64,000 nucleotides of DNA from assembly GCA_964529555.1 (NCBI GenBank), contig CAZGWV010000001.1:24592-88591 (forward strand), given 5' to 3'. Positions 17,154 through 43,911 of this stretch are shown here, piece after piece; position 1 is the first letter of the stretch, and each line of letters opens with the position of its first letter. The notes beneath the pieces are model-generated. The model worked only from the letters and a program-made list of their open reading frames with translations. It made no database searches and was not told the DNA's origin. Position numbers and translations under genes: made by a program. Origin of the DNA: an uncultured Rhizobium sp. (GTDB taxonomy: Bacteria; Pseudomonadota; Alphaproteobacteria; Caulobacterales; Hyphomonadaceae).

Positions 17154-17681
17154 TCACAGCCACTCATAGCATTCATCCGCAGGCTTGCACAAAAGGAACT
17201 CGATCGTCAGCGTCGCGGAAGATGTCTGATTGGTCGAATCCTTGATGGAGTACGTAAAGTTCTTGACGCCGGGCGTCGCCGTTCCAGACCACAGGAGCGC
17301 ATCCGCGCCACCCACGTTGACGATGGAGAGCCCAGAGCCGCTCACCGACGTTATCGAGAGAGTGTCCGCCGGCAGATCGGGATCGGTGTCGTTGGAAAGG
17401 ACGTAATAATAGGCCGTCACCGGATTTTTGTAGTAGGTGGCGTAATAGTCGTTGTGGGCAGTCGGCGGCGAGCCGCCACCGCCGCCCGCCGAACAGCCCG
17501 ACGCCGCCGAAACGCTCGTCCGGTTGTCGGCGCTGTCATAGTTATAGCAGACAGGCGTGCCCGAACTCGGCGTGACCTTCGTCAACCGCCCCAGCGCGTC
17601 GTAGGAATATGTCTGCGATACCTGCGCGGTCGCGCTTGACGTCAGCAGGGCCATAACAACGGCCACACCAAAGCAACGCAT
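17154..17681 (-). CDS. Secreted YD-repeat + cadherin-like/VCBS-type domain protein, Rhs-associated family (copy A)
   Basis: Tracked ORF trimmed to the ATG at 17681, after GGAGGGGG. Signal peptide MRCFGVAVVMALLTSSATA/Q, two YD repeats (YSYDALGRLTKV, YNYDSADNRT), a Gly linker, a VLSNDTDPDLPADTLSITSV cadherin-like signature, and a C-terminal C-x5-C. Confidence 0.7.
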   Translation of the reverse strand: MRCFGVAVVMALLTSSATAQVSQTYSYDALGRLTKVTPSSGTPVCYNYDSADNRTSVSAASGCSAGGGGGSPPTAHNDYYATYYKNPVTAYYYVLSNDTDPDLPADTLSITSVSGSGLSIVNVGGADALLWSGTATPGVKNFTYSIKDSTNQTSSATLTIEFLLCKPADECYEWL

Positions 17682-17752
17682 GCAGCGGCCCCCTCCCACG
17701 TGCAACAGCATGGGCTGCTGCATCCCTCGATCAGGAGCGTAGGCCGATCCCT

Positions 17753-17780
17753 GCGAGACTCGCAATCGAAAACTTCGCGC
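17753..17780 (-). promoter_or_regulatory. Conserved upstream element of the locus A operon (shared with locus B)
   Basis: On the minus strand this reads GCGCGAAGTTTTCGATTGCGAGTCTCGC, ~75-100 nt upstream of the YD/cadherin ATG. A near-identical CACGCGAAGTTTTTGATTGCGAGTCGCG sits at the equivalent place upstream of locus B. Confidence 0.3.
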
Positions 17781-17947
17781 AGCTGTGGAATTCTTTGTTC
17801 GCTGCTGGCAGGCGCTGGCGCGGCGACATGCACGTCGTTTGCCGTCTCATGAATACGCAGCGGTTGACGATCTCCTCCAGTTTTCCTCGGGCGCTCGTTG
17901 GAAAGAATCTCGGGAAGCAGCCGTCGAATTCGACATTGTGCAGACGG

Positions 17948-18490
17948 TTAGCTTTTGAACATCCATCCTAGGAGAATTGCCAATGCGATGTATGGCCCAA
18001 AGGCCACGCGCGCTCCTCGCATGCTTGTTCCGGACGCTATTGCGCCAATCGCGACGACCAGGAGCGCGCATGCCGACGCGATCAGCGTTAGGTGGGGGAG
18101 CCACTCCCAGCCAAGCCATGCTCCACCAGCTCCCATCAGTTTGGCGTCGCCCTGACCGAGAGCTGGTCGGCCAAGAATGCGCGTAAACAGATGACCGAGT
18201 GCGGTGAACGCTCCGTAGCCCAACGTCGCGCCGATCATTGCGTTCGGTAGCTCCGGCGCTGGCGCGTACGCGGCGCTCATAAGACCGACGATCAGGAGTG
18301 GGATGGTCAACAAGTTGGGCAGACTGAATCGGTCTATGTCGACCATCGTCGTCCACGCCAGCGTTGCTGACAGAAAACACCCAGCCGGCCAGCGCTCCGA
18401 GGGCGTCAACAACACGCACATGCCGAACGCGGCGGCGGCTAGCAATGCAGCCACTACGGCCTTGCCTCTGGGCAGGTAGAGCGCATGCAC
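17948..18490 (-). CDS. gspO: Prepilin peptidase (A24 family, GspO/PilD-like; no methyltransferase-size N-domain)
   Basis: 180 aa polytopic membrane protein with the two aspartate motifs MVDIDRFSLPN and GQGDAKLMGAGGAWLG. Confidence 0.8.
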   Translation of the reverse strand: MHALYLPRGKAVVAALLAAAAFGMCVLLTPSERWPAGCFLSATLAWTTMVDIDRFSLPNLLTIPLLIVGLMSAAYAPAPELPNAMIGATLGYGAFTALGHLFTRILGRPALGQGDAKLMGAGGAWLGWEWLPHLTLIASACALLVVAIGAIASGTSMRGARVAFGPYIALAILLGWMFKS

Positions 18491-18504
18491 GGGCGATTGC
18501 CTCG

Positions 18505-18945
18505 CTACTGCCTGAACATTTCGATGCGGCGTTCGGGAGGTCCTTCAAGCACCACGGCGGCGGCCTCAACCTTCAGCACTTTGCCGGCGGAGGTATCGTC
18601 GCCTTGTTTCACCTGCACCGATTGACCGCCAATCAGGAGGCTTGCCCGCAGCGATCCCCCCATGCGGCTGATGCCCGTCAACCGCACCTCGATCGGTGGC
18701 GGCGGAGGGGCCATCGATGCACTGCGGTCAAACGCGCTACGATCCGATGCAAACGGTGATCGCTCAAGAATCGATGGTCCTGCTTTCGGCTCGGTCGGCG
18801 GCAGTGGAGCAAATTGCGCGCGCAGAATGGCAGGCGGGTTCGCATCGCTCAACGTTACTTCGGGCGGCTCAAGCATCGGCGCCGTTGCCGCGGAGGCGGC
18901 GAGAGCGATCAGCACGATACCGGTGATGCGCAGAAACCCTCTCAT
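18505..18945 (-). CDS. Periplasmic T2SS accessory protein, GspC/GspN/PilP-like
   Basis: 146 aa. N-terminal TM anchor, Pro-rich linker, C-terminal beta-rich segment (VRLTGISRMGGSLRASLLIGGQSVQVKQGDD..GKVLKVEAAAVVLEG) resembling the PilP/GspC HR domain. Assignment rests on position and this pattern only. Confidence 0.35.
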   Translation of the reverse strand: MRGFLRITGIVLIALAASAATAPMLEPPEVTLSDANPPAILRAQFAPLPPTEPKAGPSILERSPFASDRSAFDRSASMAPPPPPIEVRLTGISRMGGSLRASLLIGGQSVQVKQGDDTSAGKVLKVEAAAVVLEGPPERRIEMFRQ

Positions 18946-19484
18946 GGCGATACCTCTACGGGACGCCAGGCGCGTCCGATCTGGGCTTTCACCGAGAGGA
19001 ATATGTCGGGCCGCGGGCCCTGGCCGGCTTCGATTTCCAGGCGCCGCACCATGAGAAACGGGCGCTCGGCGTCAAAACTCGAAAGGAATGCGACCAGCGC
19101 CTGCAGGTCGGCTGTGAACGTAAGGTCAATCCAAACACCCTGGCCGAAGCCGCCAAGATGCTCGGCGGCGAGCGGCTGCGTTGACTGAACGGCGAGACTT
19201 GCGCTGCGGGCCAAACGGTCAACGGCGGCCTGCAGGGCAAGTTGCGCCTCGGCAGTGTCAATGTGCGCCGCTGCGAGGTCGATGGGATTGTAGGCTGCAC
19301 CTGCTGGTGGAGATGACGAGGCGAGCGAGGCATAGCGTGCGAGGCGGTTCTCAGCCTCACTGCGCAGCGCCAGGGCGTCGACAAGCGGATAGCCCAGGGC
19401 CGAGACCGCAGCGCCGAGCCCGACCCCAAGGACTATGAGGGCGGCGAATTTTTGGAGGAGCGGGTGAAGTGTGCGCTGTTTCAT
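18942..19484 (-). CDS. GspM-like T2SS inner-membrane protein
   Basis: Trimmed to the ATG at 19484 (ATGA overlap with the upstream gene). ~180 aa, single N-terminal TM (FAALIVLGVGLGAAVSALGY), periplasmic remainder. Size, topology and position after the gspL-like gene fit GspM. Confidence 0.45.
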   Translation of the reverse strand: MKQRTLHPLLQKFAALIVLGVGLGAAVSALGYPLVDALALRSEAENRLARYASLASSSPPAGAAYNPIDLAAAHIDTAEAQLALQAAVDRLARSASLAVQSTQPLAAEHLGGFGQGVWIDLTFTADLQALVAFLSSFDAERPFLMVRRLEIEAGQGPRPDIFLSVKAQIGRAWRPVEVSP

Positions 19485-20440
19485 GGGGCAACCGTCTTGC
19501 GTTCGCGGGCGATGATCTCGAACGACTGGTAGCTGCCAGATGGTGCGGCATTGAGGGGGCCGGTAAGTTCGATGCTCCAGGCTTTGGCAGCATCGGATAT
19601 CTGCTTGATGGCCGCAGTAGCGTCGCCCGCCTGACCGGAGAGAGTAGTCTCCAGCGGAGTCCAGCGAATTCTCGTCCACCAGGCTGTGTTGGGTGTTGCT
19701 TCATTTAGTATGGCCAAGGTCCGCAGCGCGGTATCGGCGCGGCGGCTCATGAGTCCCCGTTCGACCAGTTGAGCGGAGACGTTGGCGTCGTTGCGCGCAG
19801 CTTCTGCCGCCACGGCGGCGCGGCGCAGAGACCGCTCCTCTGCGGCGAGCCGCTCGGTCTCGGTCTGGATGTGGGCGGTCCAGACCGAGACAGCGATCAT
19901 GGTCGCGACAATGACGCCGAGAATGATGAGCGTGTCTATGAAGAGGTTTCGCCGGGCTTTGTGTTCGGTATTCGGTGACCGTAGCTCTACGTCTTGTGCT
20001 TGCTCGACGACGAATGCGACTGATTGCGCTCCTTTGCGCTGCGCAGCTTGCTCAAGCTCGGTCAATCGATCTTTGCGCGCCATTGCGACGGAGTAAGTCA
20101 GCGATCCATCCGGCGCGCGCGCGGCTGCGCTCGCGACGATGCAGAGCGCCTGCGGGAGCGCTGGCGCAAGGTCCTGAATCTTAAGACCGAGCGCCTGTCG
20201 GTGCGCATCGGCAGCGCCTTTGGGTAGCCGCGCGGTCGCAGCGAACCCGTCAGTCTCGCCAAGGACGACTGTCACCTTGGAGGGAAGGCGCTTTTTGCTC
20301 GATTCGATATCGTCTACGGAAACCATCTTGCGAGCCGGGGAGCCGAACAGGGCGGTGATCTGCGATGTCCACCAGCGGACGGTGCTGGCGATAGGATTGA
20401 GGCGATCAAGGACGCTGGGCTGAAGACGAAGCTCTGTCAT
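19481..20440 (-). CDS. GspL-like T2SS assembly-platform protein
   Basis: ~319 aa from the ATG at 20440 (TAATG overlap with the pseudopilin gene). Cytoplasmic domain, central TM (LFIDTLIILGVIVATMIAVSVW), periplasmic domain, i.e. bitopic GspL/PilMN-like architecture. Confidence 0.45.
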   Translation of the reverse strand: MTELRLQPSVLDRLNPIASTVRWWTSQITALFGSPARKMVSVDDIESSKKRLPSKVTVVLGETDGFAATARLPKGAADAHRQALGLKIQDLAPALPQALCIVASAAARAPDGSLTYSVAMARKDRLTELEQAAQRKGAQSVAFVVEQAQDVELRSPNTEHKARRNLFIDTLIILGVIVATMIAVSVWTAHIQTETERLAAEERSLRRAAVAAEAARNDANVSAQLVERGLMSRRADTALRTLAILNEATPNTAWWTRIRWTPLETTLSGQAGDATAAIKQISDAAKAWSIELTGPLNAAPSGSYQSFEIIARERKTVAP

Positions 20441-20955
20441 TACCGGCACTCCAGCGTCACCGTATCGAACAGGCAATCGAAGGGAAGGTCTCGCCTGGGC
20501 ATCGCCATGGCGAGGGGCGTCTGTAAATTGGGCGCAAGGAGCACGATCAGGCCGCCTGGCCGCTGCTCGAACCTGGACCCCGTCGGGACGTAGATGCTTC
20601 TGTCAAGGCCGGCTGAGCGCCATTCCAGTGCCAGGCCGCTTGCGGAAGGCTCCAGACGAGCGCTCACCTGATCGGAGCCTATCTTTGCCTCGATCTGGTC
20701 AGAAGTCACAACGAGACTGCCGGCGTCCGCGCGTTCGAGCAGCGCCAGTACGCTTCCGATGGATCGGCTCGCGCGAACCTCTGTGACGGCTGTCCGGACA
20801 ACACCTGTCGTTTGACCATAGCGGTGGGTCAGCTCGACCAGGCCGACGATCAAGAGCGAGGCGACGAGAAGCCCCACGACAAGTTCCGTCAACGTGAACC
20901 CCGCTTCTGAATCTATGGCCGCCTTACGGCGCCGGGGCGATGCGATACGCTTCAA
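20440..20955 (-). CDS. Minor pseudopilin (GspJ/GspH-like) with prepilin-type N-terminus
   Basis: 171 aa. Class-III signal ...SEAG/FTLTELVVGLLVASLLIVGLV. Confidence 0.6.
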   Translation of the reverse strand: MKRIASPRRRKAAIDSEAGFTLTELVVGLLVASLLIVGLVELTHRYGQTTGVVRTAVTEVRASRSIGSVLALLERADAGSLVVTSDQIEAKIGSDQVSARLEPSASGLALEWRSAGLDRSIYVPTGSRFEQRPGGLIVLLAPNLQTPLAMAMPRRDLPFDCLFDTVTLECR

Positions 20956-21298
20956 GGCGCGTTACTCCCTTCCGGCCGGCCGCTTGCCAGGCAACTGCGA
21001 TCTCAACCTCAACCAATCCAGGCAATTCGATCTGCTCCTCGCCATAACTCACTGTCCAGGAGAGTTGCCTGTCTGAGCTGGCGCCCTGCCGAGGGGTTAG
21101 AACGATGTCTGGAGCCGCCAGGGCCTCGGCCAGCAAAACCTCGGCTTGACGCAAAGCTTGGGTGCGAACCTCCATCTCGAGTGTGCGTGACCTTGACGAA
21201 GCGAGTATGTTGATGAGCGCCGCAGCTGCGATGGCTGAAAGCGCCAAAGCTGCAATCGCTTCCACCAGACCAAAGCCGTCCTCGCTACTCCCGCGCAT
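20924..21298 (-). CDS. Minor pseudopilin (GspI-like)
   Basis: 124 aa. Prepilin-type N-terminus ...EDG/FGLVEAIAALALSAIAAAAL. The size fits GspI. Confidence 0.6.
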   Translation of the reverse strand: MRGSSEDGFGLVEAIAALALSAIAAAALINILASSRSRTLEMEVRTQALRQAEVLLAEALAAPDIVLTPRQGASSDRQLSWTVSYGEEQIELPGLVEVEIAVAWQAAGRKGVTRLEAYRIAPAP

Positions 21299-22485
21299 CA
21301 GAAGGTTCCCTCGCCGAGTTGGGACAAGCCCGTCAGGAACGCGCTCATAAGCCAGCCGGTAAACCCGCCCATGGTGAGAATCAGGATGGGACCGGCGGCT
21401 GCCGCGGCTCGATCAAGGCGGCGCAGGGCGCGCTCGATAGCGATATTGCCCGCACGCATTAGCATTTCGCCGAGTGCTCCTGATTCCTCGCCAACTCGCG
21501 CGAGACGATGAAGTTCAGGCGAGGCATTGGGGAGCGCGGCGAGCGAGCCCGCGATAGTTCGCCCATCTCGAAGGGCCCGACCGGCGGCTTTGAACCGTCC
21601 CCTCCAAATGATGTTGGGTGCTGAAGATGCGGCAAGATCGATAGCAGTTGCGGCCGGCGCGCCGCCGGAGATCAGCGCGCCGAGCGTGCGGGCAAAGGCC
21701 CCACAATTGATGTCGCGTACAATGCCGCTGAGGAATGGCATGTTGGCCCGTGTGGCTGCTAAGAGTTCACGCAGCGGCGAGCGTCGTGAGGCGACAATCA
21801 GGAGCGCGACCGCAACCGCCCCGCCAGCCAACAAGAGAAGGCCGTCTCGCTGCAAGGTCTCGCCAATTGCGAGGACGAGGGTAAGCCCCTCGGGCGGATT
21901 GGGCGCGTCTTCAAGGAGCGGCGCGATAGCGGGTCCGGCAAAGACGGTGAGCGCGATGATCGCGAATATGGAGAGAACCACCAGAAAGGCGGGATAGGCG
22001 AGGGCGTTACCGATGCGTTGGCCAAATTCTGATTGTCGGCGCAGCAGGTCAGCTGCAAACCGGAGCGAGTCTCCGAGCTTGCCGGATGCCTCGCCGGCGC
22101 GCGCCAGTTCGGAGGCAAAGGCCAGGTCACCGGTGTCCTCCAGCCGGGTTGCGCGCCCGAAATCGGATCCGACGTCAAGCCGTTCGGCCATAAGCCGAGC
22201 GAGCTGAGCCGCCCGCGGCGTGGAGGCGCCGGTTGAGAGGACGTCGAGCGCCCGCCTCAGAGGGACGCCGGCATCGTGCAGAGCAGCCAGATCCGCCAGA
22301 AATATTGCGAGCTCTGGTCGAGGTATACGACGATGCGAGAGGTTTGTTCTGGTCTTGCGGAGCTTGACTACCGTCTCGCCGCGCGCCGCCAAGGTGCGTG
22401 TTGCCTCAGTGATCGTCTCCGCCTCAATGAGACCGGTGCGCGCCTGGCCAGTGGGAAGTAGAGCGTTATACCGGTACATCGCCAT
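21298..22485 (-). CDS. gspF: GspF-family T2SS/T4P platform protein
   Basis: 395 aa. Duplicated GspF-type cytoplasmic domains and three TM segments. Located directly downstream of the GspE ATPase. Confidence 0.9.
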   Translation of the reverse strand: MAMYRYNALLPTGQARTGLIEAETITEATRTLAARGETVVKLRKTRTNLSHRRIPRPELAIFLADLAALHDAGVPLRRALDVLSTGASTPRAAQLARLMAERLDVGSDFGRATRLEDTGDLAFASELARAGEASGKLGDSLRFAADLLRRQSEFGQRIGNALAYPAFLVVLSIFAIIALTVFAGPAIAPLLEDAPNPPEGLTLVLAIGETLQRDGLLLLAGGAVAVALLIVASRRSPLRELLAATRANMPFLSGIVRDINCGAFARTLGALISGGAPAATAIDLAASSAPNIIWRGRFKAAGRALRDGRTIAGSLAALPNASPELHRLARVGEESGALGEMLMRAGNIAIERALRRLDRAAAAAGPILILTMGGFTGWLMSAFLTGLSQLGEGTF

Positions 22486-22488
22486 GGA

Positions 22489-24216
22489 TCAGCCCGCCAT
22501 GGCGCGCAAAACTTCAGCGGAGGTCGTAAGGCCTTGGCGTACTTTAAGGGCGCCATCATCCATCAAGTGTGAAGTGAGGCAGTTCGCCGCCGCTCGGTCG
22601 ACAGGCCCAAGGTCGCGCACCGCGTTGAGAAAGCCCTCCGACGCTTCAAACCCTTCAGCAATCGCGATCCGCCCGAGGAACCCGCTTTGCGTGCAGCGCG
22701 AACATCCGGCCGCATCGAATACGGCGGCGTCACTTGGCAGGCGAAAGGCCGTCTTCTCGGTTTCACTGGGCGTGCGCGGCCGGCGGCAGTGGATGCAAAG
22801 TCGTCGCACCAAGCGTTGCGAGAGTGCTCCGCGGAAGCAGGCGGCAAGCTGAAATGGTTCGACACCCATTTCAAGCAGGCGCGGTACGGCGCGTGGGGCG
22901 TCAATTGCATGAAGCGTTGCAAGGACGAGATGGCCGGTGAGGGCGGCCTGGACCGCTGCCTTCGCTGTCTCACTATCACGAATCTCACCCACCAGGATGA
23001 CGTCTGGGTCTTGCCGCAGGAAGGCGCGGATAGCTGAGGGGAAGGTAACCCCCGCCTTTGGCGCGGTCTGCACCTGGGTCACATGATCGAAGTGAAACTC
23101 GACCGGATCTTCGACAGTGAGCACCTTGCGCGGGCTCGTGCGCATCGCCTCAAGACCTGCGTAGAGTGTTGTCGTCTTGCCCGAACCCGTCGGTCCGGTC
23201 ACAAGAAAGAGGCCATGTGGCCATGCCAGCGCTCGATCAAGCAACAAACGTTCGTTAGGTGAGAATCCGAGCGCATCAAAGCTGAGCTTCACTTCGCTGC
23301 GGTCCAGGATGCGGATCACGGCGGACTCGCCATTGACCGATGGAACAATAGAGACGCGCAGGTCTACGGGGCGGCCGCCCACAACCACGGTTGTACGCCC
23401 ATCCTGCGCGGCGCGGCGATCGCCAAGGTCGAGATCAGCGAGCACTTTGATGCGGGCGATAACGGACGCAGCAGCGGCGAGCGGCTCTTCTGCAATCTTC
23501 TCAAGCACCCCATCAATACGGAATCGCACGGAGAGCGCGTTTGAGCGCGGTTCGATATGAACGTCTGAGGCGCGCCGGACGATGGCTTCGGTCAACCAAC
23601 CAGCGACACGTCGCGCCACCGGAGCGTCGCGATCAAACTCCAAGGCTGCTTCGGCGCGGTCTTCGTCGCGTTCGGCAACTTCTTGCGTCCAGGCTCCGCG
23701 AACGTCTTCGTAGGCTCCCGAGAATAGTCGCCGCTGCTCAGCTGCTCGGGCGATGCTGACAGTAACCGGCCGACCTGTGGCAAAGCGGACGCCACGCACC
23801 GCCTCGTCGTCAAATGGATCAACGAGGCCAAGAAGAACGTTCTGTCCGTCGCCTCGAAAGACCACGCACCGATGCGTGCGCATAAACGCAGGGGAGAGAA
23901 CGCTGGCGATATCCGGATCGACCTCGCCATCCGCCGCCGGCAGGCCAGAGACATACATGAAGGCCGCCTGCAGGGCGTCGTCGCTCACGGATCCAAGCCG
24001 GTTGAGAACTAGCGGCAAGGATTCGCGGTCGATGCCTTGAGCTCGACGCGCTGCGTTCTCGGTGCTTGTGCTCAACCCATCGTTCTCACGCAGCCAGGCA
24101 AGGACCCGTTCGTAGGAAGATGTATCTTCCACGGCATGAGGCGCAGGGTCCGTGACTGGTTCCGGAGTCACTCCGCGAGCAAGCACTTCATCTGGCTGAG
24201 CATCGCGCGGCGCCAT
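22489..24216 (-). CDS. gspE: GspE-family secretion ATPase
   Basis: 575 aa. Walker A VTGPTGSGKTTTLYA, Asp box, Walker B ILVGEIRD, His box ATLHA, and a tetracysteine motif (CIHC...CSRC). Confidence 0.95.
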   Translation of the reverse strand: MAPRDAQPDEVLARGVTPEPVTDPAPHAVEDTSSYERVLAWLRENDGLSTSTENAARRAQGIDRESLPLVLNRLGSVSDDALQAAFMYVSGLPAADGEVDPDIASVLSPAFMRTHRCVVFRGDGQNVLLGLVDPFDDEAVRGVRFATGRPVTVSIARAAEQRRLFSGAYEDVRGAWTQEVAERDEDRAEAALEFDRDAPVARRVAGWLTEAIVRRASDVHIEPRSNALSVRFRIDGVLEKIAEEPLAAAASVIARIKVLADLDLGDRRAAQDGRTTVVVGGRPVDLRVSIVPSVNGESAVIRILDRSEVKLSFDALGFSPNERLLLDRALAWPHGLFLVTGPTGSGKTTTLYAGLEAMRTSPRKVLTVEDPVEFHFDHVTQVQTAPKAGVTFPSAIRAFLRQDPDVILVGEIRDSETAKAAVQAALTGHLVLATLHAIDAPRAVPRLLEMGVEPFQLAACFRGALSQRLVRRLCIHCRRPRTPSETEKTAFRLPSDAAVFDAAGCSRCTQSGFLGRIAIAEGFEASEGFLNAVRDLGPVDRAAANCLTSHLMDDGALKVRQGLTTSAEVLRAMAG

Positions 24217-24218
24217 GG

Positions 24219-24698
24219 CTAGTCGGACCGGACGTCAGCGTCAGCGCCTTCGCCCCCTTCTTTTCCATCAGCGCCTAAGGACAGCACGTAGGGCGGCTGG
24301 TTAGCGACTTCGGAACGCGCGATGAGATATTTGCGCTCCCAGGGATCGAGCAAGGTCCGTTCGGACCGCACGTAAGGACCGTTCCAGACGCCAACGCCTT
24401 GCGGGGCCGCAAGCAGAGCATCGATGCCTTCTTCTGGCGTTGGATATCGGCCGACATCGATGAAGAAATCATCGAGCGATGCCGACAGCGTGTTGGCTTG
24501 AAGCTTTGCAGTCCGCGTCTGGGCCGTGTTGAAGCGCCCAAGGATCTGCGGTGTGACAGCAGCAGCGATCAACGCCAGCACGACGATGACCACGAGCAGT
24601 TCGGTCAGCGTATAGCCAGCCTCGGAGTGTTCACGCGTTTTGCGCAAGCTGGTGTCACGCTGCGCGATCCGCCTATGCGCGTTCTGCTTACGAGACAT
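24219..24698 (-). CDS. gspG: GspG major pseudopilin
   Basis: Start taken at the ATG at 24698 (the tracked start 24740 is also possible). ...SEAG/YTLTELLVVIVVLALIAAAV, then the GspG-typical ...GVWNGPYV...DPW...Y...LGADGKEGGEGADAD C-terminus. Confidence 0.9.
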   Translation of the reverse strand: MSRKQNAHRRIAQRDTSLRKTREHSEAGYTLTELLVVIVVLALIAAAVTPQILGRFNTAQTRTAKLQANTLSASLDDFFIDVGRYPTPEEGIDALLAAPQGVGVWNGPYVRSERTLLDPWERKYLIARSEVANQPPYVLSLGADGKEGGEGADADVRSD

Positions 24699-25395
24699 CG
24701 CATGGGCCTCCAGCAAGGCGGCTTGTCGGACGCCAATCAAGAATCTTGAAAGGAGAAGCAGGCGTTCGCGTGAGTAGAATCACCGCGCTGAGGCCGTCCT
24801 GTTCTTGACCAACGATAGCCAAGTCTACGGTCAACCGCGCGCCCGCACCCGGTCGCCCAATCTCCATGTCTTCTTTGGCGGCTGCCGGATCAAAGTCGGC
24901 GGCGCCCCCGAACGCTGTCAGATATGTGGTGAGGCAATCCTCAACCGACCGTTGGAGCCCGAGGTCTGACACCAACCGCATTGGTCCCTCTGAGGCGCGG
25001 CGGGTCAGAGCCGCCACGACGTCCTCGCGGATCGTTGCGTCGACGTTCCGCTCCTGGAGGAAGGCGCTAACAACAGATGGCTCGGCAAGGTTGATGTCGA
25101 GCTTGCGCGTTTCCCAGCTTATGCGCGCCGTCACCTGTTGGCCGAGCACGGGGAAGAAGGCTTGACCTTCAAGGTCGATCTGCCGACGTCGTGGCTCCAG
25201 CACCAGTTGTGTTCCCACAACGAGCAGGGCGGACCGCAAGAGGCTGGCCTGGGTTGCTTCCGCCTCTGCGCGCTTTGATGTGACAAGCGCACTGCTTGAG
25301 GCGCCAACCAGGGCCGCCGCGACGATGCTGATCGCCAGCAGCGAGCCAATGGCTGTGGCCAAGATATAGCCATCCTCGCGCGTTTGCCCCGTCAC
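24688..25395 (-). CDS. Short GspK-like minor pseudopilin
   Basis: 235 aa, GTG start overlapping the gspD stop. N-terminal TM ILATAIGSLLAISIVAAAL. The central WETRKLDINLAEPSVVSAFLQ...VVAAL...RLVSDLGL resembles the GspK (D/E)xxGKxNxN + helical region. Shorter than canonical GspK. Confidence 0.5.
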   Translation of the reverse strand: MTGQTREDGYILATAIGSLLAISIVAAALVGASSSALVTSKRAEAEATQASLLRSALLVVGTQLVLEPRRRQIDLEGQAFFPVLGQQVTARISWETRKLDINLAEPSVVSAFLQERNVDATIREDVVAALTRRASEGPMRLVSDLGLQRSVEDCLTTYLTAFGGAADFDPAAAKEDMEIGRPGAGARLTVDLAIVGQEQDGLSAVILLTRTPASPFKILDWRPTSRLAGGPCDVS

Positions 25396-36031: not shown

Positions 36032-36355
36032 ATGTCCGACCATAAGCCCGTCAGGGTGCGCCGCAGCTACTCCTGTGCGTTCAAGCGTCAGCTGGTCGCC
36101 GAGACCCGTGAGCCAGGCATCTCGATTGCGGCTGTTGCGAGACGGCATGGGATCAACGCCAACGTGGTGTTCGGTTGGCTTCGCGATCCACGTCTTGGCG
36201 GCAACGTTGCGCCCGTGGAGTTCTTGCCGGTCGCCACAAGCCCCCCCCCCCCCATGATGGCGCCCAGCCCGGAGAAGTGGCCGGCCCCGCTGGGCCTGAC
36301 CGTCGAGTTTCCCGGAGGCGTGCGCGTCCATTGCATCCGGCGAAGGCGACCTTGA
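36032..36355 (+). pseudogene. IS66-family TnpA (accessory protein), C-terminally aberrant
   Basis: MSDHKPVRVRRSYSCAFKRQLVAETREPGISIAAVARRHGINANVVFGWLRD...FLPV...GGVRV matches IS66 orfA proteins. A GTAACCGTCCGG... IS66-like IR at ~35927 precedes it. It contains a C13 homopolymer (36241-36253) and ends prematurely in ...HCIRRRRP. Confidence 0.7.
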
Positions 36356-36627: not shown

Positions 36628-36963
36628 CTATTGCGTGGGTCCGGCTGAAAGCCGCGTCGCCTTGTCCATCGAGCTCTCAAGACGCCGGACCTCTCTGCCG
36701 TTGCCGGTGGCGGCAAACTTGCTCGACCATCTATCGCCAACGCGTGCGATCTCGCGTGTTTGGCTGTGGATCACAACCCATCGGCAAGTCTCTTTCCCTG
36801 TCGTCTCGCGTGAGCAGGATTTTCCTTTGGTCCAAGGCGCCACGATCTTGCCGGAAGCATCCATGACGATCTCCATTGCAGGCGTGGGCGATGGCTTGGC
36901 TTGAGGTTGGGCGAGGGCGGGGAGACCGAGGACGGCGACCAGGGCGATACTGATGTGTTTCAT
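36628..36963 (-). CDS. Small secreted two-Cys protein, copy C
   Basis: Start taken at the ATG at 36963 (MKHISIALVAVLGLPALA/QPQ), 5 nt after the stop of the YD/cadherin gene. Family motif ...EIVMDASGKIVAPWTKGKSCSRETTGKETCRWVVIHSQTREIARVGDRWSSKFAATGNGREV. Confidence 0.7.
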   Translation of the reverse strand: MKHISIALVAVLGLPALAQPQAKPSPTPAMEIVMDASGKIVAPWTKGKSCSRETTGKETCRWVVIHSQTREIARVGDRWSSKFAATGNGREVRRLESSMDKATRLSAGPTQ

Positions 36964-36968
36964 GACGC

Positions 36969-37484
36969 TCACCAGCAATCGGGCGGACAAGTGATGATGA
37001 TCGTCGGGATGATTTCGATATCGACCGAGGCTGTGGACGTCAGGCCGGTTGAATCCATCAATGTGTAGGTCATCGAATATATACCGGGACCTGCCGCGAA
37101 GTAGATCGACTGTCCTCCAGACTGAATTGTTGCATATGATCCATGCGCTCCGCCGACGGCGCTGATCGCTAACGTGTCAAAGGGTAGGTCGGCATCAGTG
37201 TCGTTGACGAACAAGTAGTAGGGGCCGGAGATGTCGATGCCGTAGTCGCTTTCTGCGAAGACATAATCGTAAATGGCTGATGGCCCCGACACCCCCTGTT
37301 TGACCCGCGTACGATTGTCGACGTTGTCGTACGTGTATCGCACGCGGCTTGACGTTCCCGAGTCGCGCTCGACGCGGATCAATCTGCCGAACTCGTCATA
37401 TTCGTAAGTGTAGGTGGTCTGTGCGCTTGCGGATTGCGCGCTCAGCGCCATTAACAACGCCACCACCAACGACGCCAATCGCAT
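36969..37484 (-). CDS. YD-repeat + cadherin-like protein, copy C
   Basis: Trimmed to the ATG at 37484, after GGGGGGA. MRLASLVVALLMALSAQSASA/Q, YTYEYDEFGRLIRV, YTYDNVDNRT, FVNDTDADLPFDTLAISAV, C-terminal TCPPDCW. Confidence 0.7.
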   Translation of the reverse strand: MRLASLVVALLMALSAQSASAQTTYTYEYDEFGRLIRVERDSGTSSRVRYTYDNVDNRTRVKQGVSGPSAIYDYVFAESDYGIDISGPYYLFVNDTDADLPFDTLAISAVGGAHGSYATIQSGGQSIYFAAGPGIYSMTYTLMDSTGLTSTASVDIEIIPTIIITCPPDCW

Positions 37485-37794: not shown

Positions 37795-40700
37795 ATGGGG
37801 CTGCATGCACGAGGCGGGCATTGGCTTCGACGTTTCCGCAAAGTTGTATCTGCAGGAGGCGTGCTCGCAGCCAGCCTTGCCGCCGCTCCGCTTGGGTATG
37901 CGCAGGTGCAGACGGCAACGCCGCCCGTGTTCAGCGCGATCGATCATCTCGGTGTCGATGCGAGTACAGGTCAGTTCCATCTCTCGACCAGTGAAGTCGC
38001 CATCGGGCAGCCCGGTGCAGGCGGGATTGCATTTGGACGTGGCTGGGTCGCGTCAGGTTGGCGTGACTCCCTCGCCGGGACGATCTCCGTTTCGGGGGCG
38101 ATCTATACTGTGAGTTTGGGCGCAAGCGCTGAGACTTTCACGCTCTCCAGCGGAACATACACATCGAATCAGGCAATGGGTTCGACCCTGGCCTACGCAT
38201 CGAGCAAATACAGCTACACGCTGCGAGACGGCACGGTTGCAGAGTTCGACACGGCTACGGCAAGCTGTTCGGGCGTCACCAGCTTCTGGGCCTGCAATGC
38301 GGGCCTGATCACAAAGATGACGCGACCAGATGGCGAGGTCATCACCTGGACGTACTCGGCGGCGAGCGTCGGTGGCCAAAGCGCCATCCGGCCGCAATCG
38401 ATCTCGAACAATCTCAACTATCACATCCACTTCACCTACGCGATCAATGGGCCGAACAATGGCAGCGAGGTTGTCGGCGGCTATCTTGAGCGCATCAAGG
38501 TCACGGGGATCGATCGCTCGATCTACAATTGCTCGAACTCCACATTTATCTGCTCTGACAGCACGGGGGCCAACTGGCCGTATGTCGTTTATGGTGCTGA
38601 GAGCGGAGGAGTTCAGACGGTAACTGACAGGCTCTCGCAGACGACACGGTTTAAAGTCACCAGTGGAAACTTGACGGAAGTCAGATTGCCGACATCGAGT
38701 TCGGTCGCACGCACGTCGATTGCCTACAGCTCAGGGAAAGTCATCCTCGTTTCTACGAACATCGGCGGATGGTTTAGTACTGCCTACACCTACAGCGATG
38801 CTTCCGGCGTTCGTACAACGACAGCGGCACCATATTTCGAGGGTAACGCATCGATTACAAAAACCAATATCGCAAATGGCTGGGTGACCGAACTCTGGGC
38901 TGACGGCGCCGGCACGCGCAGGACGGTCTTGACACGGGACGGCTACGGTCGAGTAACGCGCACAACCCGCGCAGATGGCGACTACACAAATCTGACCTAT
39001 GACGCGCGTGGGAATGTCACACAGATCGTCGAAACGCCCAAGACGGGAAGCGGGCTCTCGAGCATCACGACGACCGCATCTTATCCGGGCAGCTGCTCCA
39101 ACGCCAAGACCTGCAACAAGCCGAACTCGACGACGGATGCGCGAGGCTATCGGACAGATTATACGTATTCTTCGACTCATGGCGGAGTGCTGACGGTCAC
39201 GCTTCCAGCGCCGTCGGGTTCAGCCCCGGTTGGCAGCGGAACGCGGCCGGAGATGCGTTACACCTATGCCGATGCCAGCACCGGCATCTACCGCGTGGAC
39301 ACGACAAAGTCCTGCGCTTCCGGTTCCTCTTGCGCCAACGCTGCAAATGAGACGGTGCAGGCGTTCACCTACGATTCCAAGCGGCGTGTTGTAACGACAA
39401 CCGTTCGCGCAGGGAATTCGTCGGTGATATCGACATCGAGCATCACCTATACTTCGCTGGGCGACATCGCGACTGTCGATGGCCCGCTCAGCGGAACTGC
39501 GGACACCGCGTATCTATACTATGACGATATCCGCAGGCTGCGCGCGAGCGTGACGCCCGACCCGGATGGCGGGGGATCGCTCCAGCATCGTGTGTCACGG
39601 ACGACGTATAACGCTGATGGTTTTCCGACCGTTGTCGAGGTGGGTCATGTATCCTCGCCTTCCAGTTGGGCGTCGATGACCGTTCTCCAGCGTATCGACA
39701 ACACGTATGAGCTCGGCCTTCCAATACCTTTCTCCAAGACCGCCCTGTCATCGGGCGGCACGACCTATGCGGTTCAGCAGTTCAGCATACACGAAAATCT
39801 CTTCGCGCGTTGCACGGCCACGCGCATGAATCCCAGCGAGTTCGCCTCGCTTCCGACCGGCATGTACGCCGCCTGTCAGGCAGACACCGCTGGCTCCTAC
39901 GGATACGATCGCATTACACTCACTGGCTATAACGGATATCGCGAGGGGACGAGCGTTGCCGACGGCGTGATTGGCAGCTTTGGGACGCCGAGGCGGCTGG
40001 TTCAGACTGTCTCCTACGATGCTTCGTCGGGAGAATCCGAATACTTGACCGATGCAGACGGCAACAAAACCAAATACGAGTATGATGGGTTCTCGCGGCT
40101 GGTGAAGACGATCTTCCCCAGCCCGACAACGGCTGGCAACCAGAACGCAGGGGACTATGAGCAGCTCACGTATGACGCCTATGGGCGCCTGACAGCCCGC
40201 CGCGGGCGAGATGGGCAGAGCTTCTCGTTCAGCTACGATAATCTTGGCCGCGTGACCGTGATCGACGCGCCGGGTTCGCAGCCGGACATCACCTACACAT
40301 ACGACAATTTCGGCCGCGTGCTGACGGCGGCCCAGTCCGGGCACACGCTCACCTACGCCTATGACGCCCTCAGCCGCCTGACCAGCGAGACGCAGGGTAG
40401 CCGCACGGTCAGCTACCAGTATGACGCGGCAGGGCGGCGCACGCGGCTGACCTGGCCGGACAGCTTCCATGTGACCTACGAGTACAATGCCGTGGGCGAG
40501 GTGACAGCCATCAAGGAGAATGGAAGCTCAGCGCTTGCGACATTCACCTACGACAATCTTGGCCGTCGCACGTCGCTGGCGCGCGGCAATGGCAGCACGA
40601 CAGGGTATGCGTTCGACGGCGGCTCGCGGCTGATCGATCTTGGGCTCGACCTGGGCGGTTCCTCGCACGATGTGTGGACGGATCTCAGCTACAACCCGGC

Positions 40701-42084
40701 CGGCCAGATCGTCTCGAAGACGATCAACAACACGGGCTACAACTTCACGCTGCCGGCCGCTTATGCCGACGCCTATGCTGATAACGGGCTCAACCAGTAC
40801 ACCTCCGCCGGGGGCGTGGCGCCGAGCTATGACAGTCGCGGCAACACGACGGGCGATGGGACGAAGGCCTACGCGTACGACTACAGCAATCGCCTGACGA
40901 GCGTGAACGCGACGTCGGTGCTCCTGAGCTACGACCCGTCTGGACGGCTGAGGGCGCTTGGCGGATCGGCGGTGGCCGACACGCTGTTCGTCTATGACGG
41001 TGTGGACGTGATCGCGGAATACAATCCGGGCGGCAGCCTCGTCCGCCGCTATGTGCACGGGCCGGGGATGGATGAGCCGCTGGTGTGGTTCGAGGGGGCA
41101 GGGCATTCGGGCTCGGGCACGCCCGACCGGCGTTATCTGTTCGCGGACGAGCGCGGCTCGATCATCGCGGTCGAGGGCGGATCGACGACGAAGAACAGCT
41201 ATGACGAGTATGGCGTTCCGGGGTCAGGTAATGCGGGACGATTCCAGTACACCGGCCAGATGTGGATGCCGGAAGCGGGCCTCTACCACTACAAGGCCCG
41301 CGCGTATAACCCCGAACTCGGCCGGTTCATGCAGCCCGATCCCATCGGCTATGGCGATGGGGTGAATATGTACAACTATGTCGCCGGTGATCCCGTGAAT
41401 TCGCGAGACCCAACGGGCCTCGTGGTCGTCGGGAATAGCGTGATTATTACTGGCGGCGTGGAGGATGGCGGCATTGCGTGCGGAAGAGATAATTCATTTA
41501 ACGAGTGCGAAGCATACCGGCAGTTTCTGCAACAAGGGGTAGAGCCGAGCATCATCTTTCCGAGTGAAATTGGGATGGATCAGGGCATTCTTACCAACCA
41601 GCCCACACCAGCTCCGCGGGGATGGACATGTACTAGTGGCGTGAACAAAAGCGGGTTTCCTAGCCCTACACTAAAGAGCTTGGGTTTCGACAAAGATGGA
41701 ATGAATCCCGGTCAATTCGCTCTGTGGAACCCCCTCGCCGCCTTTGCTGCGTACACAATCGCGCAAGACGCGGACTGGGAGACGCGTGTGTTTCAAGGCT
41801 TCTCGGGCATCCCAGCGCACAACAATGCTGCAGACGCCTTTCATCACGCCTACTGGAGTTATCGCATGCAGCAATTTTTTTGGTTTGATGGCGCCAAAGA
41901 CGTTGGCGATATTTGGGAGCGTTCCGAGCAGGGTATGCAAAACAGTCCTGGTGAACGACTAATGGATCTCTACAATAATATGGTAGGGCGGCAGCAGGCG
42001 AGTTTTGGGCCGACGTTTCCAAATGCATCGTCCGCTGTGCGAGATTTGATTAATAGAGATTGTCTGCGTACGTCGCCCTTCTAG
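37795..42084 (+). CDS. Rhs-family polymorphic toxin C, full length with Sec signal peptide
   Basis: Trimmed to the ATG at 37795, after GGGGGA. ...VVSAGGVLAASLAAAPLGYA/QVQ. ~1429 aa with YD repeats. Core end AGDPVNSRDPTG, then a 221-aa unique tip (41419-42084). Confidence 0.9.
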   Translation: MGLHARGGHWLRRFRKVVSAGGVLAASLAAAPLGYAQVQTATPPVFSAIDHLGVDASTGQFHLSTSEVAIGQPGAGGIAFGRGWVASGWRDSLAGTISVSGAIYTVSLGASAETFTLSSGTYTSNQAMGSTLAYASSKYSYTLRDGTVAEFDTATASCSGVTSFWACNAGLITKMTRPDGEVITWTYSAASVGGQSAIRPQSISNNLNYHIHFTYAINGPNNGSEVVGGYLERIKVTGIDRSIYNCSNSTFICSDSTGANWPYVVYGAESGGVQTVTDRLSQTTRFKVTSGNLTEVRLPTSSSVARTSIAYSSGKVILVSTNIGGWFSTAYTYSDASGVRTTTAAPYFEGNASITKTNIANGWVTELWADGAGTRRTVLTRDGYGRVTRTTRADGDYTNLTYDARGNVTQIVETPKTGSGLSSITTTASYPGSCSNAKTCNKPNSTTDARGYRTDYTYSSTHGGVLTVTLPAPSGSAPVGSGTRPEMRYTYADASTGIYRVDTTKSCASGSSCANAANETVQAFTYDSKRRVVTTTVRAGNSSVISTSSITYTSLGDIATVDGPLSGTADTAYLYYDDIRRLRASVTPDPDGGGSLQHRVSRTTYNADGFPTVVEVGHVSSPSSWASMTVLQRIDNTYELGLPIPFSKTALSSGGTTYAVQQFSIHENLFARCTATRMNPSEFASLPTGMYAACQADTAGSYGYDRITLTGYNGYREGTSVADGVIGSFGTPRRLVQTVSYDASSGESEYLTDADGNKTKYEYDGFSRLVKTIFPSPTTAGNQNAGDYEQLTYDAYGRLTARRGRDGQSFSFSYDNLGRVTVIDAPGSQPDITYTYDNFGRVLTAAQSGHTLTYAYDALSRLTSETQGSRTVSYQYDAAGRRTRLTWPDSFHVTYEYNAVGEVTAIKENGSSALATFTYDNLGRRTSLARGNGSTTGYAFDGGSRLIDLGLDLGGSSHDVWTDLSYNPAGQIVSKTINNTGYNFTLPAAYADAYADNGLNQYTSAGGVAPSYDSRGNTTGDGTKAYAYDYSNRLTSVNATSVLLSYDPSGRLRALGGSAVADTLFVYDGVDVIAEYNPGGSLVRRYVHGPGMDEPLVWFEGAGHSGSGTPDRRYLFADERGSIIAVEGGSTTKNSYDEYGVPGSGNAGRFQYTGQMWMPEAGLYHYKARAYNPELGRFMQPDPIGYGDGVNMYNYVAGDPVNSRDPTGLVVVGNSVIITGGVEDGGIACGRDNSFNECEAYRQFLQQGVEPSIIFPSEIGMDQGILTNQPTPAPRGWTCTSGVNKSGFPSPTLKSLGFDKDGMNPGQFALWNPLAAFAAYTIAQDADWETRVFQGFSGIPAHNNAADAFHHAYWSYRMQQFFWFDGAKDVGDIWERSEQGMQNSPGERLMDLYNNMVGRQQASFGPTFPNASSAVRDLINRDCLRTSPF

Positions 42085-42094
42085 AGGTGATCCA

Positions 42095-42475
42095 ATGAAA
42101 TTGAACAAATTTTGGATAGGGTCAGCGGCGGGGTTTGCTCTCGGTTTGTTATGTTGTTGGGTGACAGTATTTGTAACGGGAATGAATTCCACCGTTGTAA
42201 TATATAATTCGACGTCTGCGCAACTTGAAGAAGTGCGAGTGGGGCTAGATGATGAGGTCGTTTGGAATGGCCTTATCGAAGTTGGTGAGCATATCGACGT
42301 CCATCTCGGGTCGTCTCGTTCGGGCACTCTGTGGATAGAGAATATTGTGAAGTCTGATGTCGATCGTCGCGAATTAGCTTATGTAGCACCAATGATCGGC
42401 TACGATTTTTATGTATCGTTGAATTCAGAGCATGGGGTCACGTTGCAGACATGTCCTAAAGGCTCTCGCGGCTGA
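42095..42475 (+). CDS. Putative immunity protein for Rhs C (membrane-anchored)
   Basis: 126 aa, preceded by GAGGTGA. AT-rich. N-terminal TM (IGSAAGFALGLLCCWVTVFV). Starts 10 nt after the Rhs C stop. Positional inference. Confidence 0.5.
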   Translation: MKLNKFWIGSAAGFALGLLCCWVTVFVTGMNSTVVIYNSTSAQLEEVRVGLDDEVVWNGLIEVGEHIDVHLGSSRSGTLWIENIVKSDVDRRELAYVAPMIGYDFYVSLNSEHGVTLQTCPKGSRG

Positions 42476-42494
42476 TAAGAGACACTGCTCGATA

Positions 42495-42671
42495 ATGAAA
42501 GAGAATTTTATTATATCACAGGGCTTTTTGCTGGCGATTGTTATCGGAGCGCTGAGTGGATTCCTGTTGGTGGTGTTGTCAGCCGTTCCGCAAATTCCTT
42601 CATTTCCAGTCTTTGTCATCATCGTAGCCGCTTTTGTGCTAAGGAAGATATTTTGGAAGGGTGTCACTTGA
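42495..42671 (+). CDS. Small hydrophobic protein (two TM segments), function unknown
   Basis: 58 aa from the internal ATG at 42495 (MKENFIISQGFLLAIVIGALSGFLLVVLSAVPQIPSFPVFVIIVAAFVL...). AT-rich like the neighbouring immunity gene. Weak support. Confidence 0.3.
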   Translation: MKENFIISQGFLLAIVIGALSGFLLVVLSAVPQIPSFPVFVIIVAAFVLRKIFWKGVT

Positions 42672-43109
42672 CTGTATTGGCGCAAACTGAGTGTGTCGGT
42701 CAGATTGTGCCTAATTTGCAGTAGGGCGCGAAACATGAAGTCGGACTCTGTATCGCCTCTCGATTAGTGCGGGCCGGCTGCCTAGTTCAACAAGGATCCG
42801 AAGTGAGCGGACTGGATTCGAAGCGGCGTAAGCGGCACTAACGATCATCCGATAGCCGATTTCCTGGCAGGGCAAGTACAGGTGGATCGTTAGGAGCAGG
42901 CTCGCGCTGCCTGCCATGTGCTGCTCCGCTAGCCAGTCTCTCTCAGCGGGGGCCGGTCACCGCTCGGATACCAACAATGTCTGCTTCACGTGCTCAACGC
43001 AGGCCCGCCGGCGGGCGGGGCTCAGTAGTTTCCCGAGGCTGCTTCCTTCGGGGGGGGCTAGCGGTCTGTCACATGCCGCTTCAACAGGCCTGTCCTTATT
43101 GGTCTCTCA

Positions 43110-43415
43110 TCAATCGTCTTTGAGCCGATTGGCCTTGGCCGTCGCCGTCTCCTTGCGCCAGACTTCCTCGCCGCGACCGCTGCTCCCGAAGTCTGACGCC
43201 CATGTGTTTCCAAGGCGCGCAATCTCGCCGGTTTGGCTGTTGTAGATGATCGGTTCGCAGGCCTGAGGTTGCGTGCAGGCGCGCCCCTCCTTCCACGGAG
43301 CGGCGAGGGCTCCAGTGGATATCATAACAACTTCGCCTGAGTATTCTTTGCCGGTCTGGGCGGTCGCGCCCACAACTGTCGTTAAAGCTATGAGCAGGGT
43401 CAGGATAATGCGCAT
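43110..43415 (-). CDS. Small secreted two-Cys protein, copy D
   Basis: 101 aa. MRIILTLLIALTTVVGATA/Q. Family motif ...GEVVMISTGALAAPWKEGRACTQPQACEPIIYNSQTGEIARLGNTWASDFGSSGRGEEV. Confidence 0.7.
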   Translation of the reverse strand: MRIILTLLIALTTVVGATAQTGKEYSGEVVMISTGALAAPWKEGRACTQPQACEPIIYNSQTGEIARLGNTWASDFGSSGRGEEVWRKETATAKANRLKDD

Positions 43416-43416
43416 G

Positions 43417-43911
43417 TCAGAGCGGCGGCCCCCTCTCGCAGATCGGATTGCAGTAGACGACCTGCGCGGATATCTGCGCGCTCGATGTCGCTCCGCTGGC
43501 GTCTTTCATCGTATATGAGAAATTGTGCGTACCGAGGGGCGCCGCTGTTAGGCCAACGCCATTCGCGAGCACGCTCGCATAAACACTGCCCGTGGTCGAA
43601 ACCACCGACAACGTATCATCGGGCAGGTCGGCGTCCGTATCATTGGCAAGAACGAAAAGCGTTCCTGTCCATGTGCTTCCCGTCGTCATGAGGAAATAGG
43701 TGTCTGCCACCGCCGCCGGCGCAGCGTTGCCGCTCTTCACTTTGGTTCGGTTGTCCAGTGCGTCGTAAGTATACGTAACGACCTTGGTCGCGTCGCTCGT
43801 TTCACGAACCTGAATGACACGCCCAAGCGCGTCATATGTGTAAGTTGTCTGGGCGTTTGCCTGAGCCGCCATGACGAGCGTTGCGACGAGCAAGAGCAAC
43901 GGAAGCTTCAT
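43417..43911 (-). CDS. YD-repeat + cadherin-like protein, copy D
   Basis: 164 aa. [63 protein letters not shown]-terminal YCNPIC. Confidence 0.7.
   Translation of the reverse strand: MKLPLLLLVATLVMAAQANAQTTYTYDALGRVIQVRETSDATKVVTYTYDALDNRTKVKSGNAAPAAVADTYFLMTTGSTWTGTLFVLANDTDADLPDDTLSVVSTTGSVYASVLANGVGLTAAPLGTHNFSYTMKDASGATSSAQISAQVVYCNPICERGPPL

Follow-up and report, generated by a model that had tools for sequence, protein, structure and literature searches.

In the ABC (Tc) toxins of Photorhabdus and Yersinia, TcB and TcC are separate YD-repeat polypeptides that join edge to edge into one β-sheet shell, and they thus provide a structural precedent for YD strands acting in trans. Here, we describe acc1, a group of small secreted proteins with two YD repeats, which are encoded beside signal-peptide Rhs toxins in a 64,000-nucleotide stretch of DNA (the window) from an uncultured Rhizobium sp. 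placed by GTDB in the Hyphomonadaceae (assembly GCA_964529555.1, contig CAZGWV010000001.1, positions 24,592 to 88,591). Both Tc partners are very large and make up about half of the shell each, whereas acc1 has two repeats only; moreover, the acc1 system has neither a TcA-like injector nor the TcB propeller, and its proteins carry Sec signal peptides for export. acc1 appears to be a new accessory component of Rhs polymorphic-toxin systems, with a modular architecture. Together with far more numerous relatives, it forms a family of two-YD-repeat (YD2) proteins, which are probably dedicated partner subunits of Rhs toxins exported via the Sec/type II route. That acc1 and its Rhs are functional partners has, in our estimate, a probability of roughly 0.9.

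How signal-peptide Rhs toxins exit the producing cell and reach their target is an open question, and evidence that a type II secretion system (T2SS) is involved is only indirect (PMC7259588; 10.1101/2025.05.08.652813). Zhang et al. (2012) defined a Sec/"T2SS" class of signal-peptide Rhs and WapA toxins and listed no signature neighbour genes for this class (PMC3482391). Adhesion or immunoglobulin-like (Ig) domains are sometimes fused to Sec-dependent Rhs/WapA proteins N-terminally, within the same chain, whereas here the Ig domain is located on a separate YD-handle protein. One of the closest described systems is Bcn-A of Xanthomonas perforans, a 1,398-amino-acid (aa) Rhs bacteriocin whose activity is found in the supernatant, disappears when xpsD (the T2SS secretin gene) is mutated and depends on the downstream accessory open reading frames (ORFs) 2-4 (Marutani-Hert et al. 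2020, PMC7259588). Bcn-A resembles the system described here in being an Rhs toxin of ~1,400 aa with small accessory ORFs and a link to a T2SS. It differs in that ORFs 2-4 are located downstream and, compared by description only, are not presented as YD proteins in that text, in that the upstream gene is TamB-like, and in that the T2SS is the chromosomal Xps system rather than a cassette-linked operon. In Xanthomonas and Ralstonia, the families XRhs F VIII and RRhs F II are syntenic with gspG/T2SS genes and are predicted to use the T2SS (2025 preprint, 10.1101/2025.05.08.652813). Rhs-T2SS synteny is thus common to those families and to the locus described here, but the host genera differ, and the passages retrieved from this preprint and from the two papers above contain no mention of a small YD partner. 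A description of the YD2 partner family was not found in the accessible portions of the open-access full-text literature.

Rhs adaptors of the type VI secretion system (EagR/DUF1795, PAAR and VgrG) resemble acc1 as small cognate partners whose genes lie upstream of that for an Rhs effector; the adaptors are required for loading the effector onto the secretion machine. They differ in having no sequence or fold relation to acc1 and in acting in the cytoplasm on transmembrane or PAAR N-termini. Pfam and NCBIfam searches gave no EagR/DUF1795, PAAR or VgrG matches in acc1, in the Rhs N-terminus or in acc2, the second small secreted protein of the cassettes.

YD2 proteins and their synteny with Rhs genes

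The genes at the centre of this analysis are as follows:

17154-17681, minus strand: acc1-1, 175 aa; a signal peptide precedes two YD repeats, a Gly-rich linker and a Big_9 domain, with the tail CKPADEC
27646-28083, plus strand: acc1-2, 145 aa, degenerate; broken YD consensus, truncated Ig domain, without the Cys pair
36969-37484, minus strand: acc1-3, 171 aa, tail TCPPDCW
43417-43911, minus strand: acc1-4, 164 aa, tail CNPIC; the copy used for the AlphaFold2 (AF2) model
12477-16781, minus strand: Rhs1, a 1,434-aa signal-peptide Rhs, co-directional and 32 nucleotides (nt) after acc2-1; RHS_repeat E 3.3e-20
28620-33002, plus strand: Rhs2, a 1,460-aa signal-peptide Rhs, co-directional with pair 2
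37795-42084, plus strand: Rhs3, a 1,429-aa signal-peptide Rhs whose gene diverges from pair 3, with ~310 nt between them
44202-~46730, plus strand: Rhs4, a signal-peptide Rhs, divergent from pair 4; 64% identical to Rhs3 until ~46730

The window contains exactly four copies of acc1 in a tblastn search. A preliminary description, made from the letters of this DNA and a list of ORFs, had named the four genes as paralogues, and all of these ORFs were found, with pairwise identities of 39-54% and tblastn E values of 1e-14 to 1e-25. It had also placed each of them first in an accessory pair; indeed, each acc1 is followed, at -4 to +55 nt, by acc2, a small ORF with a signal peptide. Each full-length Rhs gene is accompanied by a single acc1-acc2 pair (four acc1 and four acc2 in all), and all four Rhs proteins have signal peptides of their own; tblastn detected no accessory pair at the two orphan rhs C-terminal modules of the window. 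Pairs 1 and 2 precede Rhs1 and Rhs2 in the same direction; pairs 3 and 4 and their respective Rhs genes, Rhs3 and Rhs4, diverge from intergenic regions of ~300 nt.

In a metagenome scan, the commonest relatives of acc1 are tiny: their precursors, of 62-100 aa, are made up solely of a signal peptide, a pair of YD repeats and a Pro-rich tail (an example is ...AAETITYTYDAKGRLVKVVRTGTVNNNVTVEYTHDKADNRTRVKTTNSPNPPP). A profile of the YD handle, with scoring limited to 8,000 candidates, matches at least 6,220 proteins at E<=1e-3, a lower bound that may include some multi-repeat Rhs proteins below the top 120 matches. These 120 are all 67-102 aa long and are annotated at their source only as "YD repeat-containing protein" or "hypothetical protein". 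Most YD2 members have no Ig domain, and their mature peptide comprises ~50 residues. The family pattern is a Sec signal peptide and, directly after it, two and only two YD repeats, Y-x-Y-D-x-x-G-R-L ... Y-x-[YH]-D-x-x-D-N-R-T, in which Y, D, G, R, D, N, R and T are invariant across the alignments, and acc1 falls within this definition. By sequence, the acc1 genes are a rare, Ig-bearing branch of a large family of secreted YD2 mini-proteins. A free-standing YD protein had been thought unusual, which does not hold for the family; only the Big_9-bearing version is rare, as the acc1-4 query retrieved 22 proteins out of 5.8 billion (E<=1e-3, all 93-261 aa).

Synteny was assessed at 42 informative loci, each with at least 2.5 kb of downstream sequence. 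Some of these loci are the same sequence from different samples; distinct handles number 40 of 45, including three copies from the window. The adjoining gene encodes a signal-peptide Rhs of ~1,400 aa at 39 of the 42 loci, being directly downstream on the same strand in 36 and divergent in three, and the three remaining loci are all truncated by the upstream end of the contig. Overall, strict synteny with Rhs was seen at about 50 independent loci. The gap between the YD2 and Rhs genes is typically -13 to +141 nt. Moreover, the three members chosen only for their long contigs all show the same order, that is, YD2, then an Rhs of ~1,430 aa and then an ORF of 190-240 aa. The partner Rhs proteins have their own signal peptides, and many of their mature N-termini, read by eye, carry a D-x-NGV(D/N) motif. 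It had been proposed to survey whether the small gene always lies upstream of a signal-peptide Rhs gene; this is so for pairs 1 and 2 and for 36 of 42 loci elsewhere but not for the divergent pairs 3 and 4 and the three divergent loci.

The link to Rhs can be assigned to one part of the protein. A whole-acc1 profile matches 75,527 proteins, and the best 150 of them are tandem-array adhesins of 1,280-7,932 aa. Giant Big_9 or "tandem-95 repeat" adhesins share with acc1 the Ig domain and its NDTDxD motif; they differ in their size (1,300-8,000 aa, 12-57 repeats) and, for the most part, in having neither a YD pair nor Rhs nearby. Likewise, in a pattern scan of 185,579 species genomes, 43 loci had Big_9 in giant ORFs without the YD motif and with no Rhs nearby; six true loci were found, in two metagenome-assembled genomes (MAGs). 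Such scans detect only relatives that retain the chosen motifs. Four giants among the best 150 (P0033, P0091, P0092 and P0114; loci L060 and L062; 1,469-2,891 aa) have the same signal peptide and YD pair at the N-terminus, followed by about 10-30 Big_9 domains. In particular, P0114 ends in RTX-like GGxGxD repeats and is encoded directly upstream of a T2SS operon with the same gene order as in the window and then a DUF6531 Rhs, and a gene for a 1,413-aa Rhs-like protein lies downstream of P0092. Judged from these sequences, the Big_9 domain is generic and not the Rhs-linked part of acc1. The preliminary description had named a generic fold with no Rhs linkage in other genomes as an outcome that would speak against it; this is the case for Big_9 but not for the YD pair, which is strictly Rhs-linked in the window and elsewhere and is the very element that had been proposed to dock onto Rhs. 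What follows the handle varies: nothing, Big_9, Big_3_5, Calx-beta or an array with about 10-30 copies of Big_9. The C-terminal module of these proteins is optional and exchangeable; what stays constant and linked to Rhs is the YD pair.

MAGs with the labels Rhizobium sp. and Pseudomonadota, together with an assembly of Caulobacter segnis, are the nearest records with a name. Wherever a close relative has sufficient flanking sequence, its acc1 lies beside a signal-peptide Rhs (loci L004-L006 and L008-L013; contigs P0009, P0013 and P0022), in the two layouts also found in the window: acc1, acc2 and Rhs in one direction, or Rhs divergent from acc1-acc2. The fragmented C. segnis locus again contains the trio of Rhs, an acc1-like gene and T2SS, adjoining TraD and MobA genes. 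The more distant P0013 gene overlaps the start of a 1,460-aa Rhs gene and has neither acc2 nor T2SS genes within 10 kb. A plasmid collection yielded no match to the locus DNA, to acc1 (except for one generic tandem-95 hit) or to a mini-YD protein.

Domain architecture of acc1

The signal peptides of all four acc1 copies, as read by eye, are of the n-h-c Sec type with A-x-A followed by Q, in agreement with the A/Q ending first described. A lipoprotein reading was rejected, as the window copies have no lipobox Cys. The YD pair begins 2-4 residues past the signal-peptidase site. Two YD repeats and a cadherin-like or VCBS-type domain had been attributed to each protein. For the repeats, this is borne out in copies 1, 3 and 4, in which Pfam RHS_repeat (PF05593) matches two stretches per copy, with E values of 7.9e-11, 6.8e-7 and 3.5e-8 and scores of 42.5, 30.0 and 34.1 bits, respectively (curated cut-off 22); the NCBIfam YD-repeat profile TIGR01643 scores 24.6-30.6 bits against a cut-off of 15.8. 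The same three copies carry an Ig-like Big_9 domain (PF17963) with E values of 5.9e-10, 2.7e-7 and 1.3e-9 and scores of 40.3, 31.8 and 39.3 bits (curated cut-off 23.6). An ND(T)DxD motif is present in this domain. Cadherin models are borderline: only acc1-4 passes Cadherin_4 (25.9 versus 25.1 bits), Cadherin_5 scores are all below 26.5, and the others are at or below threshold (PF17803 and PF17892 were tested). The VCBS reading was discarded, since no Pfam VCBS family matches any acc1 copy at E<=1. From its profile scores, the domain is best named Big_9 (cadherin-like Ig).

In subfamily 1, the linker is a stretch of Gly (5-13) or Pro (more than 10), and with this composition it forms a flexible tether between the YD and Ig modules. 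An AF2 model of acc1-4, built from an alignment of 18 sequences, has a mean predicted local distance difference test (pLDDT) score of 81.6. In this model, four β-strands at residues 22-59 form two YD hairpins, and a short linker leads to residues 70-153, which fold into an Ig-type domain of seven strands; most blocks of this domain have pLDDT values above 90. When compared with the PDB by Foldseek, the model matched SraP binding-region domains, classical cadherin EC domains and RTX-adhesin extender domains (E ~1e-4); template-modelling (TM) scores are low, ~0.4, because the query has two domains.

The YD pair is more conserved than the Ig domain (mean identity 58% versus 47%), being higher in 24 of 28 pairs. 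acc1-3 and acc1-4 are 41% identical, and the N-terminal regions of their Rhs proteins are 64% identical. The terminal Cys pair, which had been ascribed to each protein, is found in copies 1, 3 and 4 but not in copy 2, and among homologues it is limited to some subfamilies; one whole clade ends in ...VSLQ without it. With two repeats in 164-175 aa (copies 1, 3 and 4) instead of the dozens that make up a closed shell, no PxxxxDPxGL autoprotease core motif and no toxin domain, the acc1 proteins are not themselves Rhs toxins. Compared with its own Rhs, the YD pair matches the canonical repeat block (residues ~780-940) only generically.

acc1-2 departs from this description. Family-invariant residues are changed (YTYG, ALVRP, NDID), Pfam finds neither RHS_repeat nor Big_9 in it, and the last ~35-45 residues are missing, including the Cys pair. 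The lost C-terminus was sought in another reading frame, where a weak resemblance was found (score 18). From its sequence, acc1-2 is probably decaying. A 23-bp element is located ~75-95 nt 5' of the starts of acc1-1 and acc1-2 only:

17757-17779, minus strand: 23-bp element CGCGAAGTTTTYGATTGCGAGTC, 5' of acc1-1
27549-27571, plus strand: the same element, 5' of acc1-2

These two matches compare with 0 expected from 100 shuffles, and the element may serve subfamily-1 cassettes as an operator or promoter.

Possible role of acc1 and its relation to the T2SS

Between pairs 1 and 2, Pfam and NCBIfam identify the following operon, which is complete:

17948-27332, minus strand: T2SS-like operon; gspD secretin, a 235-aa ORF, gspG, gspE (MshEN), gspF, two minor pseudopilins, a 331-aa ORF, a T2SSM_b protein, a PilP/GspC-like ORF and a prepilin peptidase

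The operon includes all five components that were required for its assignment, namely a secretin, the GspE ATPase, the GspF platform, the GspG pseudopilin and a prepilin peptidase (Pfam: Secretin E 5.4e-46, T2SSE E 3.6e-119, T2SSF E 1e-37, T2SSG E 5.4e-25, Peptidase_A24 E 2.7e-19). T2SS genes in the same order lie no more than 10 kb away in all six MAG loci, in L065 and L066 and on the P0009 contig, and the operon adjoins acc1-acc2/Rhs cassettes in L008-L013, L062, L065 and L066 and on P0009. Moreover, in P0009 and L013, acc1 and acc2 are the first genes of the T2SS operon itself. These genes may encode a secretion system dedicated to Rhs toxins.

In the mechanism that we propose, acc1 would be exported by Sec into the periplasm alongside the signal-peptide Rhs. 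There, the handle of two YD hairpins would bind the cognate Rhs of ~1,400 aa by β-sheet augmentation, its strands being of the same type as those of the Rhs shell and the TcB-TcC junction serving as the model. The Gly/Pro linker would display one Big_9 domain as an exchangeable binding module, whose ligand might be located on the target cell or on the surface of the producer. The adjacent T2SS-like machine, which is encoded on the same conjugative element, would probably move the products of the acc1-acc2-Rhs cassette across the outer membrane. For the complete chain, in which the YD pair docks on its cognate Rhs, the C-terminal domain binds a surface ligand and the complex exits via the T2SS, we judge the chances to be evenly balanced. 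The Ig part had been regarded from the outset as an attachment module. Such a role fits the replacement of modules, the Gly/Pro tether and the faster divergence of this domain, but the domain is dispensable for the family.

Several observations weigh against acc1 as a partner subunit of Rhs. None of the 120 best YD2 family matches is fused to Rhs, although fusion would be expected for an obligate structural subunit; the association may therefore be transient or regulated. Since most members are without a binding domain, the core function cannot lie in the Ig part. The Rhs proteins themselves retain an N-terminal region, ~300-400 aa long, which possibly already caps the shell, and for this reason sealing of the Rhs shell, as suggested in the preliminary description, is unlikely to be the main role. 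Furthermore, most mini-YD loci have no T2SS genes within 10 kb. Finally, a degenerate acc1-2 accompanies an apparently intact Rhs2, and Rhs may therefore not strictly depend on its partner.

A protein that is always a separate polypeptide, with no Rhs fusion among those best 120 matches, could also be a periplasmic assembly or export factor, whose YD pair attaches only transiently to the nascent Rhs β-sheet, at its open edge. It might act as a folding nucleus, as an anti-aggregation cap or by presenting the cocoon to the T2SS, and it would be absent from the delivered particle. This explanation would account for the predominance of bare YD pairs, which have nothing to bind a target, for the position of the gene, first and tightly coupled to Rhs, and for the acc1-acc2 pairs that open the T2SS operon in some loci. 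It is less easily reconciled with the C-termini of the relatives (10-30 Big_9, Calx-beta or Big_3_5), which resemble surface or extracellular binders, and with the divergence of the Ig domain between cassettes, which suggests specificity for something variable; on balance, we consider an assembly factor unlikely. An independent secreted adhesin that co-travels with Rhs and T2SS genes, its YD pair binding a non-Rhs target such as a carbohydrate or an outer-membrane component, would be in keeping with Big_9 as a domain typical of giant adhesins. Carbohydrate binding by YD repeats has indeed been proposed in older literature, as cited in PMC3482391 and PMC7259588. Adjacency to Rhs at 39 of 42 loci, with gaps usually below 150 nt or overlapping, is nevertheless much closer than a co-travelling cargo would require; every full-length Rhs has its single copy, the orphan tips have none, and generic Big_9 proteins without the YD pair have no Rhs nearby. 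An adhesin of this kind is accordingly quite improbable. The proteins might also be non-functional debris of Rhs genes from a recombination hot spot, given the orphan rhs fragments and insertion sequence (IS) remnants in the window and the decay of copy 2. Intact ORFs with their own signal peptides, structural residues that are invariant across thousands of homologues of constant size and a gene order that is kept in unrelated metagenomes make debris very hard to credit; for copies 1, 3 and 4, it is contradicted by their conservation.

The finding is thus a conserved, abundant and apparently undescribed partner gene, which combines a constant YD handle with a variable binding domain, and it suggests that strand complementation in trans occurs naturally in YD shells with just two repeats. 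As the toxin, its partner and a dedicated T2SS-like operon are located on one mobile element, delivery could be tested with a small defined gene set. More tentatively, and with doubt prevailing, Sec/T2SS Rhs toxins could be two-part particles, in which a detachable YD adaptor plugs into the Rhs shell by strand complementation and swappable receptor modules set the target range. These modules would be nothing at all, one Ig domain, Calx-beta or a 60-nm Big_9 stalk. If this were so, the YD adaptor would be a functional parallel of phage receptor-binding proteins, or of TcA for Tc toxins, and the mini-YD family, with its more than 6,000 members, would represent a missing general component of widespread Rhs delivery outside the type VI system.

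acc2 and other features of the island

The second genes of the four pairs are as follows:

16814-17098, minus strand: acc2-1, 94 aa; signal peptide, PW motif, two conserved Cys
28080-28409, plus strand: acc2-2, 109 aa; 4-nt overlap with the acc1-2 stop
36628-36963, minus strand: acc2-3, beginning MKHIS..., 5 nt past the acc1-3 stop
43110-43415, minus strand: acc2-4, 101 aa; 1 nt past the acc1-4 stop

The acc2 proteins are four paralogues of 94-110 aa (~75 when mature), with a PW motif, two conserved Cys and the pattern TxEIARxG...FxxTGxGxEVxR. Neither Pfam nor NCBIfam nor the PDB sequences contain a match to them, and acc2, as the sole query of a phmmer search, retrieves only itself. An AF2 model from the four sequences is unreliable (pLDDT 60.8). 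acc2 occurs only with the Big_9-bearing, T2SS-linked branch and not at mini-YD loci.

In Rhs proteins partnered by YD2, including Rhs1-Rhs4 and those of L119, L110, L145, L012 and other loci, the sequence (P)PxFxxxDxNGVD(L/V)xxG directly follows the signal peptide. This motif could be used as a search key for this class of Rhs. In Rhs3, a DUF6973 domain (E 9e-14) forms the C-terminal toxin tip, and the 126-aa ORF at 42095-42475 is likely its immunity gene. At ~46730-47800, unrelated DNA takes the place of the remaining Rhs4 gene; within it, a 250-aa ORF (47023-47775, minus strand) has no Pfam match. Two orphan modules are also present in the window:

9814-11940, minus strand: orphan rhs module with small ORFs downstream; 94% DNA identity over 1,354 bp to Rhs1
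33496-35010, plus strand: orphan rhs module with small ORFs downstream; 92% DNA identity over 819 bp to Rhs2

Such orphan rhs modules are a classic substrate for recombinational toxin-tip displacement. Just 3' of pair 3, at 35596-36355, there are IS remnants, consisting of a C-terminal fragment of an rve_3 integrase and an HTH_Tnp_1 transposase ORF. At the equivalent position in related loci such as L013, the pair is followed by the T2SS operon.

The island of the window is on a conjugative element, with VirB4/TrbE-, VirB11- and VirD4/TraG-type genes at 561-7231 and ParB-like, SSB and ArdC anti-restriction genes at the right end (53479-61981). Two large ORFs, at 47964-52070 (plus strand, 1,368 aa) and 55474-59502 (minus strand, 1,342 aa), have NACHT/nSTAND-type NTPase matches, one of them with an N-terminal helix-turn-helix; their role may lie in defence or regulation, with no relation to the Rhs system.

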